From Candidatus Heimdallarchaeota archaeon (lineage in GTDB: Archaea; Asgardarchaeota; Wukongarchaeia; Wukongarchaeales; JBHIFL01): DNA of 25,405 nucleotides. The notes beneath the pieces were generated by a model. That model did not search any database and was not told the DNA's origin. It saw nothing but the letters and a program-made list of their open reading frames with translations. The translations under genes were made by a program, and so were the position numbers. The stretch is taken from positions 1 through 25,405 of the forward strand of contig JBHIFL010000060.1 of NCBI GenBank assembly GCA_046761065.1, in the 5' to 3' direction. Shown here in pieces: positions 4,357 through 21,241 of this stretch; position 1 is the stretch's first letter, and each line of letters opens with the position of its first letter.

Positions 4357-5539
4357 GAAACTCCTAGAAAGATGTCAGGAAATCGCTCCCGATCTAGTGA
4401 AGCTCCGACGCGATATTCATGCAAATCCTGAATTAGGCTTCCAAGAGGTAAGAACAAGCAAATTGATCGCTGAAAGGCTGAGCCGCCTTGGTCTTGAGGT
4501 ACAGACCAACATTGCCGAGACGGGTGTGGTCGGGCTCCTCCGAGGGGGGCGACCGGGGAAGACAATTGCGCTTCGAGCTGATATGGATGCGCTGAGCATT
4601 CAAGAACAAACAGGTGCGGAGTATCAGAGCCAAATTCCCGGAGTGATGCATGCCTGCGGTCATGATGCCCATGTGGCCATGCTTCTCGGGGCTGCGCAAA
4701 TATTGCAGGAGCTGCAAGTGGAGATCCCAGGAAACATCAAGTTCATTTTCCAACCTGCAGAGGAAGGACCGGGTGGGGCAGCGAAGATGGTGGAGGAGGG
4801 TGTGCTGCACAATCCCGATGTGGACGCCACTATCGCCCTGCATGTTGACGATGAAACGGAAGTAGGGCAGATCAAGATAAAGTCAGGAATTGCTACAGCC
4901 GCAGCGAATGCGATGCGCATAAAAATCCAAGGAAAAGGAGGTCATGCGGCTTACCCCCACAAATCCGTTGATGCAATTGTGGTCGCCGCCCATGTGATCC
5001 TAGCGCTCCAGACAATTGTAGCCCGCGAAACTGATCCGTTAGACGCAGTAGTGGTCACAATTGGGGTGATAGAGGGGGGAGACCGAAACAACATAATCGC
5101 AGAGAAGGTTATCATGGAAGGGACAATTCGTACGTTGAATGATGTAACCCGCAAGGCAACCTTCTCAGCCCTCCAGCGGATAACGGAGCAAGTTTGCACC
5201 GCGATGCGTGCGGAATGCGAGATAGAGATTTTAGAAGGGTATCCTCCTGGGGTGAATGATCCACAGCTGATAGGAATCTTCCGAAAGGTAGCAGAGGAGC
5301 TTCTTGGCCCAGAAAACGTGAAAATCGCCGCAGTGCCCGAAATGGGCGCGGAAGACTTCTACGAGTTCGGATTTGGCATTCCAGCGGCGATGTTCCACTT
5401 AGGGATTGCGAATAAAGAGAAAGGAATCACATTTCCCGGACATCATCCACGGTACGACATCGACGAGGATGCGCTACCATTAGGAGTCGCAATTTTAGTG
5501 GCCAGTGCCCTCAACTTCCTTCAAGAATGCAAGGATTAA
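4346..5539 (+). CDS. M20D family amidohydrolase (N-acyl-amino acid hydrolase / carboxypeptidase)
   Basis: Motifs RRDIHANPELGFQE, ALRADMDAL, MHACGHDAH, FQPAEEG, GKGGHAA, MGAEDF and HHPRYDIDE. Confidence 0.95.
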   Translation: MIQKKLLERCQEIAPDLVKLRRDIHANPELGFQEVRTSKLIAERLSRLGLEVQTNIAETGVVGLLRGGRPGKTIALRADMDALSIQEQTGAEYQSQIPGVMHACGHDAHVAMLLGAAQILQELQVEIPGNIKFIFQPAEEGPGGAAKMVEEGVLHNPDVDATIALHVDDETEVGQIKIKSGIATAAANAMRIKIQGKGGHAAYPHKSVDAIVVAAHVILALQTIVARETDPLDAVVVTIGVIEGGDRNNIIAEKVIMEGTIRTLNDVTRKATFSALQRITEQVCTAMRAECEIEILEGYPPGVNDPQLIGIFRKVAEELLGPENVKIAAVPEMGAEDFYEFGFGIPAAMFHLGIANKEKGITFPGHHPRYDIDEDALPLGVAILVASALNFLQECKD

Positions 5540-14064: not shown

Positions 14065-14437
14065 CAAGGCCCTTGGATGATGGTGTTAGTCTACAACAAG
14101 TTTGAAAACAAGAAAGAATATACAAATATAAGCATTTTAATTAAAATTAATTAATTTATTACTCTCTGATACTTACATGGAACACAAGTATCTTCATAAT
14201 AAATCTAGTTGGCAAGTATGGTTTTTTCAGGTTTCTTTAAATAGGTATTATTTTTTAGCTGTGTTTACTGAGTCTTCATTTGAAGATATCACAAAAGCAT
14301 ATAGGAATAAGAATTCTAAAGACAAATTATCAAAGAACATGCTTTATTACTCTCATCAAATGGTTATAATAGTTTTTGGAGAAAAATCAAAAGGTTACCT
14401 TTTTTTCCTACCAAAGTTATTTTTGTGGGGGAGAAAA

Positions 14438-17044
14438 ATGGCAGACCAATCGCTGCAACCCGGGTCCGAAGGTGAATCACGCGAGATTACCACAACAGAG
14501 ACCCTAGATCAATTATTAGAATCTGGAATTGTGACACTTATCTCAAAGAATGGGAACAGTTATCCGGTTTATACGGGAAATTGGGAAATCATCCCTTCTA
14601 GCCTAGGGAATTTCTTTGAAGAATTAGACTGCTATTTAAGTACAAAAGATATTGGAAACATTACGACAATCAATGTATATTTCGGGAAAAAAAATCAACG
14701 AATCGAATTGGAAGGCTTGCTACCCTATGGCATGATCTTGACCAGGCAACCAGTTCCAGACATAGGAGAATTAATAGCGCTCAATTTTACTCAATATAAT
14801 ATTGATGAAAACCTACTGACAGGTTTAATGAACGACTCAGGTGAGCTCCTTCAGCAAATGATGAGTTTTTTTCCCCAATGTGAGCAAGAGCCGCGAATTG
14901 AGCTCATCAGGTTTTTAGCTCCGGTAATAGTTGATGCCTTCCGAGAAGGCCATTTAAAGAAGCTCGTACATGAAACAACTGGTTCTGAACATTTTTTAAG
15001 AACCCATGAAGTCTGGGGATCTGGAAAACGTCTCCCGTTGAGTATGGGGGGAACTAAATCCTGGGTTTTTAAAACAGTGTATGGTACCGAAGATACTACC
15101 CTTCATTCACTTGTGAGTTGGGTCTTAGATCAATTGGCTCTCTTTATGGACGAATTCAACTCATATATGGCGCAACCAGATCGAACTTCAATCTTGGAAC
15201 GCCTTATAGAATCAGGCTTTGAAGACTTAGACACTTTTACAGGAACCCCTATTGAGTGGATAACACAAGTTGAGGAAGCAATCAAGGATTTTACGTTTAC
15301 AGAACCCCAAGAAAGGAGAGTACGGGACTTTTTCCGAAATGAAATGAAAAGATATGTAGCAAAAGTATCGATTCCTTCAGTGATTCGTGTCTACATGAAA
15401 ATGATTCATGAAAAAAAGGGCACAGACAAAGAATTCGAATTTATTGACACCTTTGGAGAGTATTTGCAACAAGCCCTCATTGAAATCCTTGATCAAGGTG
15501 CGACGGTGCCTGAAGACCCCAGAATATTTGTCCAATCTCAATTCTCGGGTATATTTACTGAATTTCGCAAGCAATATGAGATTTCGAGCCAAGGAGCCTT
15601 TAATTCTCTAGTAACGAAAACCCTTGAATCAATTCCTGAACTCAATCTTCCCCAAATATTTCTTGATTCAGGTTATCTTCGTAACTGCTTAACCAATTCT
15701 TTAACACAATTGAAAAAAAGCGTTAGTAAAAAGATATCTTACCAAAAAGAACAGTTGGCTGAAAAAACGCAAATCTTAGATGAAGAAAAGATAAAAATAG
15801 ATGAAAAACGCCAGATTCTTTCCGAAAAAGAAAATATCCTTCTGGAGAGGAGTGAACACCTACTTTCTGAGAAAGAGCGGATCAATACAAGAGAACGAAA
15901 ATTAATAGATGAGAAAGATAGATGGGATGAAAAAGAAGCGGAATTAAATACTGAAGAAATCAAACTAGAAACCGAAAAACAATCTATAATTCAAGCGCAG
16001 ATGACGTTGAATGAAAGCGTCGCCCGCTTATCCACAGAGAATCAGCAATTAATTGCTAAACAGAAGACATTAACCATAGAGAAAGGGAATGCAGAGGAAC
16101 AACTTCAACAGGCAGCAATCTTGGGGGGGGAGCCATCACACGAGAGAGAATCACTAATAAGGCAAATTCAGGATTATGAAACAGAACTAACAACTGTTTC
16201 TGAACTGAAACAGACCTTGAACAATGGACTTGCTGCTCTTGAAAAGGAACGATCAGTCTTAGATGAACGAAACAGTGTACTGACCGCGAGAGACGACATT
16301 TGGAAAAAAGAAATTGCTAAATTACATGAAGCCCGGGAAAAGTGGTCAAACAATATCCAAGCTCTCAAAAAAGAGAAAGAGGTACTAGAAGAAAATTTTG
16401 CCTCTTTGGAAAAGGATCGAACCCATCTAAATAGAGAACGCACTGCATGGGAGGCAGATCGCAGAGATTTGCTCGAAAAAGTTACCGAATTGGAACAAAA
16501 GAAGAAGACCCTAGAAGATACACAAGCTGCTCTTCATGAAATTATCAAATTCGTGAGACAAAAGATGGAGCAAGAATTCGGTGAGATTATTACTTATGAA
16601 GTAGACGAAATAGCAAATCTTGTCCAGAAGTTTCGAACAAAGGTACCTACTTATTTTGAAGAGGCTTGTAAATCTAGGGGTTCCATAAGGATTGAAGAAG
16701 AGTGGTTCACCGACATTTTCCAAGAAACCCCCCAGAACTACAAACAAACCTGCGAGTTTGAGGAGCTCAAAGAGCATTTGAGGTATTGGGCTTCTCCTGT
16801 GGGAGGGATTTATCCTCAGAGAATAGAGATCTTCTTAACCAAGTCTGGTGGCAGGAAAACTGGGTATGCGCTGTTCCTATTTCAAGATCAACGAAGCCGA
16901 TACTCGCAACAAATTGGTGCGGTTATGGCTAAAGAAATGCCTGAGGGAACCCTCTTATTACGTGATCTACGTGAAATATGCCGGCAACTCAGTGAACACT
17001 ATGATTTACTGATTAAACCGGAAACAGGTGAACAAAATGTCTGA
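14438..17044 (+). CDS. Large hypothetical protein: longin/roadblock-like N-terminus, helical middle, hinged long coiled coil, globular C-terminus
   Basis: 868-codon ORF from ATG 14438 with GGGGAG upstream. Strict heptads at 15734-16552. No transmembrane segment or canonical NTPase motif. Confidence 0.9.
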   Translation: MADQSLQPGSEGESREITTTETLDQLLESGIVTLISKNGNSYPVYTGNWEIIPSSLGNFFEELDCYLSTKDIGNITTINVYFGKKNQRIELEGLLPYGMILTRQPVPDIGELIALNFTQYNIDENLLTGLMNDSGELLQQMMSFFPQCEQEPRIELIRFLAPVIVDAFREGHLKKLVHETTGSEHFLRTHEVWGSGKRLPLSMGGTKSWVFKTVYGTEDTTLHSLVSWVLDQLALFMDEFNSYMAQPDRTSILERLIESGFEDLDTFTGTPIEWITQVEEAIKDFTFTEPQERRVRDFFRNEMKRYVAKVSIPSVIRVYMKMIHEKKGTDKEFEFIDTFGEYLQQALIEILDQGATVPEDPRIFVQSQFSGIFTEFRKQYEISSQGAFNSLVTKTLESIPELNLPQIFLDSGYLRNCLTNSLTQLKKSVSKKISYQKEQLAEKTQILDEEKIKIDEKRQILSEKENILLERSEHLLSEKERINTRERKLIDEKDRWDEKEAELNTEEIKLETEKQSIIQAQMTLNESVARLSTENQQLIAKQKTLTIEKGNAEEQLQQAAILGGEPSHERESLIRQIQDYETELTTVSELKQTLNNGLAALEKERSVLDERNSVLTARDDIWKKEIAKLHEAREKWSNNIQALKKEKEVLEENFASLEKDRTHLNRERTAWEADRRDLLEKVTELEQKKKTLEDTQAALHEIIKFVRQKMEQEFGEIITYEVDEIANLVQKFRTKVPTYFEEACKSRGSIRIEEEWFTDIFQETPQNYKQTCEFEELKEHLRYWASPVGGIYPQRIEIFLTKSGGRKTGYALFLFQDQRSRYSQQIGAVMAKEMPEGTLLLRDLREICRQLSEHYDLLIKPETGEQNV

Positions 17045-19391
17045 TAAACGATTGAGCGGTACCATGGCATTGCCAGGGGTAAGTGATCTTAAAGCAATTC
17101 AACTGCTTCAGACCTATCCACCTTGGATGGATCAAATCTGGAAGAGTAAGACACTCCCTGCAGGGTTAATCCTTGCTCTCTCTCAAACTGCGAACATTCC
17201 TAGCGATTTGGTCGAGATAATCCACTCCTACGGCTTAAAAGCCATTGAATTCATAAAAGCATATTACAAATTGATGATACGGATTCAAACAGGGGGCGAC
17301 CTGGAAATTGCGAGGGAAGAATTACGCGATTTATGGAATCGTTATCGCAATCAAATACCTATCGCCCACTTCTTCGCAAAAAGTTTGAATACCACCATCA
17401 AACAAGTCCTTTTAGGTTTAGACCGAAAAGAGAAATCAATTACTCGATCTAAAGACCGAAAAGAAAAACTCCTTGAATACCAGATCCTTCCAACTTATTT
17501 AGAGACCACAACACAGGTTCTAACACCTTGGGTCGAGATGGAAAATTCCGTTTCAACAAAGGTAATCGAACAGGAAAAGGCCGAAGGAATTCCATCGGAT
17601 GTCTTCTCCTACAGATTGGAGATCCTTGAAACTTTAACCACGGGTTCCAGCGAACTACCTGAAACATATCCCAAATTACTTAAAATTACCAACGAAAGGC
17701 TTCAAAAATGGTGCGAGAAAGGTTTTCTGAAGAAAGCACTTTTAGAAATTACTGGATTCGAAGATGTTCTTGCACATTTGCTCAAAGAATCAGGCCTTAC
17801 ATACTCCCGTCTAACCGAACTCTTAGCTGCCGCAAAAGATCTTGAACAAATGAGACCATATTTAGACATTCTTCGAGTAATGGAGGCGGTGGAAGAGCGA
17901 TTTAGGCCAAGATTTAGTCAGATTTCCATTGAGATTCAACTTAAGATGTTTCTCAAAAACGAACTCACAGCAGAGGACCTAACCTGGTTGAAAGGTCTCC
18001 TGTTTGAAGGGCAATCCAGTGAAGCTAGAATGCATCGCCTGCGATTAACTGATCAAGAAGTAATTGATAAGCTCGTGGAATATTGGAAGATAAAACAAAC
18101 CATCAGAGATCAATTTCGTATAGGGGATGCGAAATCCGAAGAAGATACGGCTCTCACTGAGAAATTTGCAGGGAAGATTTTAAATTTCGTAGTCTATAGT
18201 CCTTTAAGCACATTAAAACTCTTCACTGAATTATATGATTGGATAATCGTTCATGTTTCCGATATTGGCATAGAAATTCGAGCCATGAGGGACCAGTATC
18301 GGCGCATTATGCAAATTGCCAAAGCAATTGGAGAACTTGTAAAAGAGATCCAATTAGTTTGTACAGATATGGACTCGGAACAAATCCGAGCCCTCCTTCA
18401 TTCAGTATTTATGGATGAACAATATGTAGAAGTTCTACAAAAGATCCCCTCCACCCCATCCGCGCTGGCTCGAACAACCTTTCAGGAACATGGCCTGTTC
18501 AAGACCTATCCAAATTTAATAGCACATAATGGTTGGTGGCCCCTTGCATTAGAAACTTTGATTCAATTTGAAGAAAAAGTCAGACAAATTGGAACCGCAC
18601 GTCTTGTGGAAAAAAAGGACGAGTTTGATCTTGAACAAGCAAATATAAGCGTTGCTTCAGCTTTAATTAAACAGTTATCAAGTATTAGCGCCCAAGCTTT
18701 GTCCAAGTCTCATCAGACCACTATATTGCCTGGCTATGATACTGATTTTTCTATAAGAAAAGCTTTAAACCCTTTGGTGGAAATTGAACGAAGAACTCGG
18801 GCTAATCCGCGAGAAGTTTTACTTCAGGTATTAAATGCGGAAGTACCTATGCCTATGGGGAATCAAACTACCAAGCAAATCCTGGTAAGTGACATATTTC
18901 AGGATGATCTCGAGAAATATGAAACCTTGATGCAAGGTATTAAACCACAGACCCATATTCTTGATTTATGCGACTACTTTTCTTATGAAATTGTGAGTGC
19001 CTTAATTAGTAATATGCTGCCTCATTATGAAAGAATGGGGCTAGAGAACACTCTGGAGAATATCAGCGACGAATACGTCTCACTTCTGCGTCAAATGAGA
19101 AATTCTCTTAGGAAATCTGGAAGCCGAGATGAATGGGGGAAAATGATGACAAGTTTAATGCGTTTTTCAAAGAGTGTTGAACGCATCCTTGACAACACAC
19201 AGCAGTATCGGAATACATCTCTTACCCAACTAGCAAACTACATCCTCCAGCCGAGTAAATTTCTGCAAGGTGCCTTAAAAGATGTAGGATTCGGACGTAA
19301 GGGGATTATTCGTGAGTCCATCGAAAAAACTCTTAAGGAAGTAATGACCCTCCAGCGTCTCTTGAGACATCTTCGCTTAGCAACTATGTGA
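17037..19391 (+). CDS. Large hypothetical all-alpha protein
   Basis: ~784-aa ORF whose start overlaps the previous stop (ATGTCTGA), implying translational coupling. L/E/K/I-rich amphipathic helices, no transmembrane segment. Confidence 0.9.
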   Translation: MSDKRLSGTMALPGVSDLKAIQLLQTYPPWMDQIWKSKTLPAGLILALSQTANIPSDLVEIIHSYGLKAIEFIKAYYKLMIRIQTGGDLEIAREELRDLWNRYRNQIPIAHFFAKSLNTTIKQVLLGLDRKEKSITRSKDRKEKLLEYQILPTYLETTTQVLTPWVEMENSVSTKVIEQEKAEGIPSDVFSYRLEILETLTTGSSELPETYPKLLKITNERLQKWCEKGFLKKALLEITGFEDVLAHLLKESGLTYSRLTELLAAAKDLEQMRPYLDILRVMEAVEERFRPRFSQISIEIQLKMFLKNELTAEDLTWLKGLLFEGQSSEARMHRLRLTDQEVIDKLVEYWKIKQTIRDQFRIGDAKSEEDTALTEKFAGKILNFVVYSPLSTLKLFTELYDWIIVHVSDIGIEIRAMRDQYRRIMQIAKAIGELVKEIQLVCTDMDSEQIRALLHSVFMDEQYVEVLQKIPSTPSALARTTFQEHGLFKTYPNLIAHNGWWPLALETLIQFEEKVRQIGTARLVEKKDEFDLEQANISVASALIKQLSSISAQALSKSHQTTILPGYDTDFSIRKALNPLVEIERRTRANPREVLLQVLNAEVPMPMGNQTTKQILVSDIFQDDLEKYETLMQGIKPQTHILDLCDYFSYEIVSALISNMLPHYERMGLENTLENISDEYVSLLRQMRNSLRKSGSRDEWGKMMTSLMRFSKSVERILDNTQQYRNTSLTQLANYILQPSKFLQGALKDVGFGRKGIIRESIEKTLKEVMTLQRLLRHLRLATM

Positions 19392-19447: not shown

Positions 19448-19741
19448 GGATAATATGAATGTAAATCAGAAACCTTTAAAATTTTTCCCAAACAATGAAA
19501 GGCATTCATTTTTTACCATACATATGAAAAAAAGAATGTAGTTTTGACTTAAGATATTACTTACCATTCTTTGCATAAATAATACTAAAAGAACGAAATT
19601 TAATTAATAAAATTATTGCTTAATATTAAATAATATATTATTATGTAATAAATTAAATCTGTTAACTCTTATTTTCACTAATGATGATGAGCCACAAAAG
19701 GTAAAAGTATTGAATTGAAAAATAGTATGAGGGGTAATGTT

Positions 19742-21241
19742 GTGACACAGCCAAACGAACTTCAAAGGGTTAAGAAACAAGTTCTGGCACAAATAAAAAG
19801 CGTTGCAATGGAAATTGAGGACAACATCTTACGCCAAGAAACTGACCGGGCATTAAAGAGCTTGGAAAACTTCGAAGGAGATCCAGACCAATTTCTCACC
19901 GATGCAAACGAGATTCTAGGCAATCTAGTTCGACTGCTTGGCGAATACGATAAAAGACGCAGCGACCTGCGGGCCCTCTATGCGGATCTTGACGAGATCC
20001 AACAATCAGCAGCGACACCAGAGGGGCTTGTGGAAATGTTAGGTTGTTTAGATTATCCAGAGGCTAGATACGCTGCAATAGAACTCATTCAGGCCACATC
20101 GCTTCTAGCGCAACTATCGCGAGGTGTGTTTGTTGGAGAGTATGCCGAGTGGATCCGGGAACAGGCACGGATGGCTCTCCGAGATCTTCTAGGCACAGGA
20201 AAAGGACGCTTTCAAGCTGATATTGCAACTCTATATGGTCTAGGAGCATCCAAGATTCTCCGTGCGATCAGACGTGATCCCACAGGAGGCGAACTAAGAC
20301 AAATGATACAAGAAGAGCAAATTAATTACTCAGCGATAGTATCAGTTGCAAAACGAATAGTGGTCGGCCTCCAACAGGAAATCCTCATGCCACTCTTTCA
20401 GGAGACTGAGCGTGAAATGAGGGAGGGGCTGCTCGCCTACATTGTGCCCCCCGAGGAAAGACGTTTGGACGATACTTTAATTAGGAAATTGGCCAAATAT
20501 GTGGATCCTGAGCTTGTCATCCGATCCAGGTTGGCAACCCCATTCGAAATAACACTAAAACGGAAATCTGTCCCCCTCTTCGCAAATTTTTTAAAGCTTT
20601 CTGACGATCTTGCGAGACTGCTCAGCCTTTTCCCAACACATTTGCACCAAGCCGATCGAAAAACCATAAGCAAAACCATCAATATGATTAGAACCACAGT
20701 TAAAGAACTCCACGAGACAAGTGCTTTGCGAGATCTCAGTGATCTTAAAGATGAAGAAGAGACAGAACGGCGCTTCTTACTTCTCCTTCTACGAAAGGAA
20801 TTCCTCTCCGACTTAAGAAAACGAATCAGTTGGGTTTACGGACAAGTTTCAGAAGAGGCACCTCTCCCAACAGAAGTACGCAAGTTCTTTGAACGGGAAA
20901 TTGTTTCCTATGTGGAAGATTTCGCACAAACTGTAACTGATCTTTCAATTGAAGACCTCCAAGCAAACCTTTCAGCATGGCGTAGATGGTTGCACCGTAT
21001 TGAAGTTCAATTTAATATCTCAGAGATCCAGATGCGCCCATTTTTGAGATTTGCGCCAGACAACTTCATTGCAATGGAAAGGGTCAAATTACACCCAAAG
21101 CATCTTATGAAGGTCAATTCTATTCTGAAACGGCGAAAACGCCTAGCGGCAATAGCACGAAGGGGTAAAACGGCTGAGAACGCCTTAACCAGTTTAGAGG
21201 CATTATTTGCTTATTTAGAAAAACGGCTGAGAACACCTTAA
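19742..21241 (+). CDS. Hypothetical all-alpha protein, C-terminus affected by a tandem duplication
   Basis: ~500-aa ORF. GAGGGGT upstream favours GTG 19742. Preceded by a very AT-rich ~320 bp spacer. Confidence 0.88.
   Translation: MTQPNELQRVKKQVLAQIKSVAMEIEDNILRQETDRALKSLENFEGDPDQFLTDANEILGNLVRLLGEYDKRRSDLRALYADLDEIQQSAATPEGLVEMLGCLDYPEARYAAIELIQATSLLAQLSRGVFVGEYAEWIREQARMALRDLLGTGKGRFQADIATLYGLGASKILRAIRRDPTGGELRQMIQEEQINYSAIVSVAKRIVVGLQQEILMPLFQETEREMREGLLAYIVPPEERRLDDTLIRKLAKYVDPELVIRSRLATPFEITLKRKSVPLFANFLKLSDDLARLLSLFPTHLHQADRKTISKTINMIRTTVKELHETSALRDLSDLKDEEETERRFLLLLLRKEFLSDLRKRISWVYGQVSEEAPLPTEVRKFFEREIVSYVEDFAQTVTDLSIEDLQANLSAWRRWLHRIEVQFNISEIQMRPFLRFAPDNFIAMERVKLHPKHLMKVNSILKRRKRLAAIARRGKTAENALTSLEALFAYLEKRLRTP

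Follow-up and report, generated by a model that had tools for sequence, protein, structure and literature searches.

The window examined here, 25,405 nucleotides of the contig JBHIFL010000060.1 from Candidatus Heimdallarchaeota archaeon (assembly GCA_046761065.1), contains on its forward strand a gene for a coiled-coil protein of 868 amino acids, which we call P0001. The protein is a real orphan, an SMC-arm-like stalk protein to which no function is assigned. We favour, with somewhat better than even confidence, the suggestion that its central rod is an intramolecular antiparallel two-helix hairpin, folded at a central LGGEP break and forming a stalk of ~20 nm. A hairpin of this size had been proposed from the letters of the window alone (the original prediction). 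It is now the best-supported reading, given the gain of 105 residues by each arm in a longer homologue, the turn that AlphaFold2 places at the break and the superposition of the models on solved hairpins, although an antiparallel dimer would give the same symmetry.

In a word-indexed search of 5.8 billion clusters this protein was represented by four, namely that of the window itself, P0004, P0005 and P0006. The family comprises these four clusters, formed at 90% identity, plus fragments. P0004 and P0005 (869 amino acids) are 81% identical to P0001; P0006 is 47-53% identical and, with 1073 amino acids, stands alone among the homologues in its length. Unless numbering of the open reading frame (ORF) is stated, residues are numbered as in the 868-residue form of P0001.

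Heptads, central break and arm length

The gene and its parts are as follows.

14438..17044, forward strand: gene for the orphan coiled-coil protein P0001 (868 amino acids); its ATG at 14438 is matched by the starts of P0004, P0005 and P0006
14438..15733, forward strand: globular region at the N-terminus, residues 1-432; mixed alpha/beta followed by a helical part, in a low-confidence model; no family
15734..16111, forward strand: arm 1, 18 heptads, residues 433-558; position 1 of the Leu type except in the last heptad, positions 4 and 5 mostly charged
16112..16153, forward strand: central break AAILGGEPSHERES, 14 residues, 559-572, equal to heptads 19-20
16154..16552, forward strand: arm 2, 19 heptads, residues 573-705; Trp at position 1 of heptads 8, 10 and 15
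16553..17041, forward strand: C-terminal region, residues 706-868; helices followed by a small domain predicted to be beta/alpha; no family

The translation of positions 15734-16552, in frame with the ORF 14177-17044 (ORF residues 520-792, residues 433-705 of the protein), divides exactly as was originally described: 18 heptads (ISYQKEQ...AEEQLQQ), the 14-residue break and 19 heptads (LIRQIQD...LHEIIKF), all in a single register. The break itself can be read as two further heptads, AAILGGE and PSHERES, which brings the total to 39. Position 1 of the heptad is occupied by L, I, V, M, F, W or Y in 36 of the 39, and the three exceptions (A, A and P) are located at the break. In 20,000 shuffles that preserved composition, the best register scored 13.8 on average and 22 at most. 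The claim that position a is hydrophobic is thus borne out beyond all of these shuffles, and the regularity of the heptads is far beyond chance. The companion claim that d is often charged also holds, since position 4 is charged in 26 heptads and hydrophobic in three. Position 5 is hydrophobic in 10 heptads, mostly those of arm 2, and charged in 21. The hydrophobic seam of the coil is therefore only one residue wide, which is unusual. Both arms are net acidic. No tandem repeat was found at the DNA level under the heptads, therefore the periodicity is a property of the protein.

Within residues 406-736, some 330 residues predicted to be helical, the only proline (P566) and the only Gly-Gly pair (563-564) fall in the break. 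Tryptophan occupies position 1 of heptad 10 of arm 1, the ninth from the hinge, and of heptads 8, 10 and 15 of arm 2. The original prediction had placed the arm-1 Trp heptad, ninth from the hinge, between arm-2 Trp heptads that are eighth and tenth. These positions are correct, but a third Trp heptad in arm 2 (the 15th) was missed, and the argument that the residues interdigitate is weak because the Trp of arm 1 is not conserved: it is replaced by Leu in P0006.

Arm lengths that vary independently among homologues were named in the original prediction as a refutation of the hairpin. No such variation is seen, and the hairpin has survived this test. P0006 has gained exactly 105 residues in each arm: in the alignment with P0001 its extra residues number 42+63 before the break and 4+101 after it. 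A single register runs through the 69-70 heptads of its rod; heptads 34-35 (LADNPET LADEKSP) contain prolines, and this break has stayed central. The arms thus have 33+34 heptads in P0006 versus 18+19 in P0001, an increase of 15 heptads per side. The site equivalent to the arm-1 Trp follows the same pattern. In P0001 it is ninth from the break, between the eighth and tenth heptads of arm 2; in P0006 it is 24th from the break, between conserved arm-2 Trp heptads that are 23rd and 25th. Between the two proteins the heads, that is, the N-terminal and C-terminal regions, are 59% identical and the arms 37-46%.

A scan of P0006 for internal duplication gave nothing above a null that preserves the heptads, therefore a single recent duplication fails to account for the equal growth of the arms. 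Recent duplication was also considered as the origin of the heptads themselves, and for neither the heptads nor the extension of P0006 do the repeat and duplication scans support it. In a separate observation, self-comparison of residues 431-920 of P0006 (encoded at L002:10001-13222) gives its highest scores, 381-388, when the offset is 21 or 42 residues, versus a maximum of 326 under the heptad-preserving null. This suggests a weak super-repeat of three heptads in the P0006 rod.

Monomer modelling with AlphaFold, which had been proposed as a check on the hairpin, was carried out with AlphaFold2 on the four-sequence alignment for P0001 and P0006, and the models of both length variants have their turn at the break, as predicted. 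In P0001 the model has helices at 406-561 and 567-713, which extend past the limits of the coil as first described, and only LGGEP (562-566) between them is non-helical; the predicted local distance difference test (pLDDT) score of the arms is 80-90. In P0006 the helices span 411-662 and 674-952 with an arm pLDDT of 70-79. Their sole break is ADNPETLADEK (663-673), and a further proline at 731 leaves the helix unbroken.

The geometry of the models was inferred from structural alignments to solved structures. Residues 435-692 of the P0001 model superpose on the Bacillus subtilis Smc arm fragment 5nnv_D (Z 13.6, root-mean-square deviation (rmsd) 2.3 A over 252 residues), and residues 440-685 on Pyrococcus yayanosii Smc 5xg2 (Z 13.7, rmsd 2.4 A over 237 residues). 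The chemoreceptor hairpin 2ch7_B, tied for the best structural match to the model, is overlaid by residues 409-717 (Z 15.7, 307 residues, rmsd 6.7 A). The same three structures align with residues 538-795, 543-788 and 513-819 of the P0006 model, respectively, all centred at about 666. Since the arms superpose on antiparallel hairpins symmetrically about the break, both models are antiparallel two-helix hairpins that turn there. With about 150 helical residues per arm, the modelled stalk would be ~20-22 nm long in P0001; that of P0006 would reach ~37 nm.

What the hairpin would mean, and other arrangements of the rod

If the hairpin is correct, the rod would fold back at LGGEP into an intramolecular antiparallel two-helix coiled coil, and the 430-residue N-terminal and 160-residue C-terminal regions would come to lie next to each other at one end of the stalk and make up a composite head. 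At its opposite end the stalk would finish in a bare loop, with neither a hinge domain nor a zinc hook. The arms behave as a stalk of changeable length that tolerates changes of sequence: the parts near the head are retained, and the distal parts can become longer, provided that both strands gain the same amount. As the protein is without nucleoside triphosphatase (NTPase) motifs, the stalk may act as a passive spacer or scaffold, probably in partnership with P0002 and P0003, the products of two co-transcribed orphan genes described below. The composition of the seam also speaks for this reading. With position 4 charged in 26/39 heptads or position 5 in 21/39, a parallel homodimer in register would stack like charges in its core, and with antiparallel pairing each layer could hold a Leu from one strand.

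Several considerations weigh against this reading. Only two independent arm lengths are available, hence the covariation of the arms amounts to one comparison, for which the probability of chance was estimated at ~0.05-0.15. A monomer run of AlphaFold2 cannot form an intermolecular coil and long helices tend to fold back in it; the alignment supplied was shallow (four sequences); long helical models often give Z values of the size seen. In the models of P0001 and P0006 the pLDDT of the two heads is below 50, so that contact between the N- and C-terminal regions gains no support from these models. A scan of e-e' and g-g' charge pairs over all heptad shifts peaks at a register (S=269) other than that of the AlphaFold2 pairing (S of ~260), and per-heptad mirror correlations of hydrophobicity and of charge between the arms have no clear peak.

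The break raises further difficulties. Its sequence is not conserved, and GGEP is present in the protein of the window only. In P0001, P0004, P0005 and P0006 it is exactly 14 residues long, and the heptad phase passes through it uninterrupted. A continuous helix needs such a spacing and a hairpin does not, so an extended antiparallel dimer, or open and closed states of the same protein, are viable. Finally, in a third lineage, represented by P0028, the break is an 11-residue stretch, EETVSDTKRDD, without Gly or Pro. P0028 is a C-terminal fragment of 336 amino acids (L010:3-1013) whose arm 2 has 19 heptads, as in P0001. It apparently has three extra residues, including a proline (QPI), two heptads earlier in arm 1; relative to P0001, three residues seem to have been shifted from the break into the arm.

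The strongest alternative is an extended antiparallel homodimer, in which arm 1 would pair with arm 2 of the other chain, head to tail, either straight or slightly kinked. Such a dimer would be a dumbbell of ~40 nm (~72 nm for P0006) with an N-terminal head and the C-terminal head of the partner chain at each end, and it might represent the hairpin in an open, domain-swapped form. We consider it unlikely. The predicted intramolecular coil that joins the halves of the head is obtained with AlphaFold2 in two length variants, and intermolecular antiparallel pairing fits the symmetry, and the gain of 105 residues on each side, equally well. The unbroken phase across exactly 14 residues suits a continuous helix, and so does the P0028 break with its lack of Gly and Pro. 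On the other hand, the Pro and Gly-Gly located exactly on the dyad would have no obvious purpose in a straight dimer, and AlphaFold2 makes the break non-helical in both length variants.

It is improbable that the rod is a parallel dimer in register with a flexible central linker, kinked and ~40 nm long, of the kind found among intermediate-filament-like and other cytoskeletal proteins rich in coiled coil. Intermediate-filament-like rods, such as those of crescentin or of the lamin/CRWN type, are parallel dimers in which a and d are both hydrophobic and the heads are short. Similarities to P0001 do exist: a rod of ~300 residues, a central linker, one heptad phase throughout, and faint precomputed matches to CRWN_N, HmpF and HALZ together with weak NCBIfam coil matches, which indicate generic coiled-coil character. 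A canonical parallel rod would have mostly hydrophobic residues at both a and d. In P0001 only one position of the heptad qualifies (36/39 at position 1 versus 3/39 at position 4 and 10/39 at position 5), and a parallel dimer would place 21-26 like-charged self-pairs in its core, depending on whether position 5 or 4 is taken. Nor would such a rod require its halves to lengthen by the same 105 residues, and the globular N-terminal region of 430 amino acids contrasts with the short heads that intermediate-filament-like proteins have.

Least probable of these alternatives, with only a slim chance in our estimate, is that the Leu seam does not serve for self-pairing and binds helices of P0002 or P0003 to form a heteromeric bundle, or that the arms are mostly single helices stabilized by charge. 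A seam one residue wide and a content of 41% charged residues are indeed weak for an autonomous two-stranded coil; the P0002 gene overlaps the coil gene by 8 nucleotides, consistent with translational coupling, and P0002 is the better conserved of the two in the P0006 lineage (75% identity versus 47-53% for the coil protein). The equal lengthening of two arms is left unexplained by either version, and single helices were rejected as unlikely: opposite charges at i/i+4 are not enriched (10 pairs versus 10.2 expected in arm 1, 15 versus 10.7 +/- 2.7 in arm 2), and a hydrophobic residue at every seventh position in 36/39 heptads is not a feature of single helices.

The gene, its neighbours and its distribution

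The ORF that contains the heptads, 14177-17044 on the forward strand, is open upstream of position 14438. Since the starts of P0004, P0005 and P0006 all correspond to ATG 14438 (MADQS...), we take the protein to have 868 amino acids. An AT-rich spacer and the motif GGGGAG are present upstream of this ATG. The 87 codons of 14177-14437, which are AT-rich, are probably not translated, judging from homologues that begin with MADQS or MSEEL. A form of 955 amino acids that includes 14177-14437 is used by some database gene calls.

Two further orphan genes follow.

17028..19391, forward strand: P0002, an orphan, ORF of 787 amino acids; probable ATG at 17037; homologues 72-86% identical
19715..21241, forward strand: P0003, an orphan, ORF of 508 amino acids; an 86% identical homologue is located at the same place in L003

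The start of P0002 is probably ATG 17037, which gives the overlap with the coil gene mentioned above. A homologue of P0002 lies directly downstream of the coil gene in all contigs examined (L002, L003, L004, L010 and L023). P0002 is followed by a P0003-type protein of ~500 amino acids in the window and also in L003, the one further contig inspected over this distance. The cluster of three genes is conserved. No family and no solved structure was matched by P0002 or P0003. Among 300 other genomes of the phylum, P0002 has three borderline matches (E of 3.6e-4 to 8.7e-4, 27-28% identity over ~100 residues). P0025, a partial homologue of P0002 with 86% identity, is labelled Candidatus Aenigmarchaeota in NCBI. 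This label probably reflects a binning error, as every other member is of the Hodarchaeota/Heimdall type.

Upstream of the coil gene, the order pyruvate kinase, 235-residue protein, alpha/beta hydrolase, coil gene, with the hydrolase immediately next to the coil gene, is kept in three lineages, those of the window, L003 and L002. In L002 there are extra genes between the protein corresponding to the second of these (236 residues) and the hydrolase. They include an IS605-type OrfB/TnpB-like gene on the opposite strand (L002:7770-8363) and, just upstream of it, an amidohydrolase gene that is absent from the window at this place.

The family was found only in a small number of Asgard archaea of the Hodarchaeota/Heimdall type, and its named members come from metagenome-assembled genomes that carry the labels Candidatus Hodarchaeota and Candidatus Heimdallarchaeota. 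When a profile of the N-terminal domain was run exhaustively with HMMER against 1.84 billion representative proteins, only the family itself and a fragment of 339 amino acids were returned. No full coil protein was found in the 40 relatives scanned, and no C-terminal domain beyond the genome of the window in 300 sampled genomes of the phylum. A scan of genome contigs gave nothing, and a scan of metagenomes gave one additional close copy, in L023. There (L023:4001-6567, JABAOC010012046.1) the coil gene is ~82% identical to that of the window and is spread over three frames (2, then 3, then 1), with frameshifts near 5019-5044 and 5384-5389; the 787-residue partner ORF downstream is intact. The L023 coil gene is either a pseudogene or the product of an assembly error.

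A speculative suggestion can be made about the cluster as a whole. The three orphan genes might encode an Asgard-specific structural machine that works independently of nucleotides, with a core subunit of SMC-like topology, in which a composite head would sit on a two-stranded stalk of adjustable length, lacking ATPase, hinge and hook, and serving as a passive molecular ruler or tether in the organization of the cell. We regard this as doubtful and give it little weight. If it were true, there would be a passive ruler or tether in the archaeal lineage nearest to eukaryotes. The hosts are Hodarchaeota/Heimdall-type Asgard archaea, whose cell biology is of interest as a possible source of clues to the origin of eukaryotes. 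The hairpin, if true, would offer a simple natural system for the question of how two strands of a coiled coil stay matched in length (15 heptads were added to each), and it would point to an uncharacterized complex of three proteins. As the family is tiny and its function unassigned, the immediate impact is modest.

Comparison with known families and systems

In Pfam, NCBIfam, PADLOC and PHROGs the coil protein has only weak matches confined to the coil, and P0002 and P0003 have none. Sequence searches of the PDB with the N-domain profile, P0002 and P0003 gave nothing meaningful, and a protein-atlas search with P0002 gave no usable match. With the full model of the coil protein, an atlas fold search and Foldseek against the PDB yielded coil-shaped matches only. 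The folds of the heads are not searchable structurally because the heads are too poorly modelled. The family DUF2357, suggested by a protein-atlas feature search (score 0.90), was rejected, since its family model finds nothing in the genome at E<=10.

A Roadblock/LC7 (PF03259) identity was examined for two parts of the protein, the C-terminal domain and the first ~110 residues, whose order of strands and helices could fit such a fold. With hmmscan nothing was found in the heads of the coil protein even at E<=10. The family model applied to the genome picks up 12 genes, the coil gene not among them. In hhalign comparisons of four-sequence head profiles with the 12 Roadblock domains, the probability was <=1.8% for the N-terminus and <=0.6% for the C-terminus, near the internal control segments. 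The identity is therefore unsupported by all three approaches, and the head models are too poor for the fold to be judged. All 12 Roadblock/LC7 genes of the genome are above the Pfam cut-off; three of them lie within ~8 kb on contig C89 (L011, L018 and L020).

The known proteins closest in overall plan are SMC, Rad50, RecN and MukB, the arms of which have the same predicted topology, with N- and C-terminal regions joined by a long antiparallel two-helix coil. The modelled arms of P0001 fit the Smc fragments 5nnv and 5xg2, and in SMC arms too the two strands change length together. The arms of P0001 are far more regular than SMC arms, with their 39 heptads in phase. The likeness to Rad50, SMC and RecN that was originally suggested thus stands for the architecture; it does not extend to motifs of the ABC-ATPase head or to family matches. 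No Walker A motif (GxxxxGK[ST]) is present anywhere in the protein, and MGGTKS, which comes closest to it, is not kept in P0006. An LSGG signature with Walker B is likewise absent: there is no hhhhDE motif, ORF residues 790-955 match no family, and the SGG of KSGGRK is not conserved among homologues (LGGQ, LDGR, SYGE). Neither Pfam nor NCBIfam gives a match to SMC_N, AAA_23 or other NTPase families. An SMC, Rad50 or RecN identity was rejected in view of the missing head motifs and of a TIGR02168 score of 17 bits versus a cut-off of 567, obtained over the coil only; the real SMC of this genome is encoded on another contig, C180. The original statement that neither a CxxC hook nor a hinge domain is present was also right. 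In a motif scan, Cys is absent from residues 433-705 and CxxC from the whole protein, and, unlike the hinge or zinc hook of SMC and Rad50, the tip is a polar loop of 5-14 residues.

A second archaeal comparison is with ASRP (archaea-specific SMC-related protein, NF045487), which also has long coiled coils. It matches P0001 weakly over residues 508-823, with 21 bits versus a cut-off of 300 and over the coil only, and its ATPase head is missing in P0001. The cytoplasmic signalling hairpin of chemoreceptors (2ch7), like the P0001 model, is long, continuous, antiparallel and helical, and its tip is bare. This is a likeness in shape only, as P0001 lacks the conserved tip motif, a transmembrane or HAMP region and the pattern of methylation sites; MCPsignal has no match in Pfam or NCBIfam, and the tip sequence varies among homologues.

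Long antiparallel coiled-coil hairpins are known mainly from the arms of SMC- and Rad50-type ATPases, from dynein stalks and from chemoreceptors. In all of these a functional tip is connected by the stalk to a head that is enzymatic or sensory. In P0001 the same topology is predicted without a recognizable enzyme, with a bare tip and with an unusually minimal coil of one Leu per heptad. What we describe is a new protein family built on a known architectural principle.

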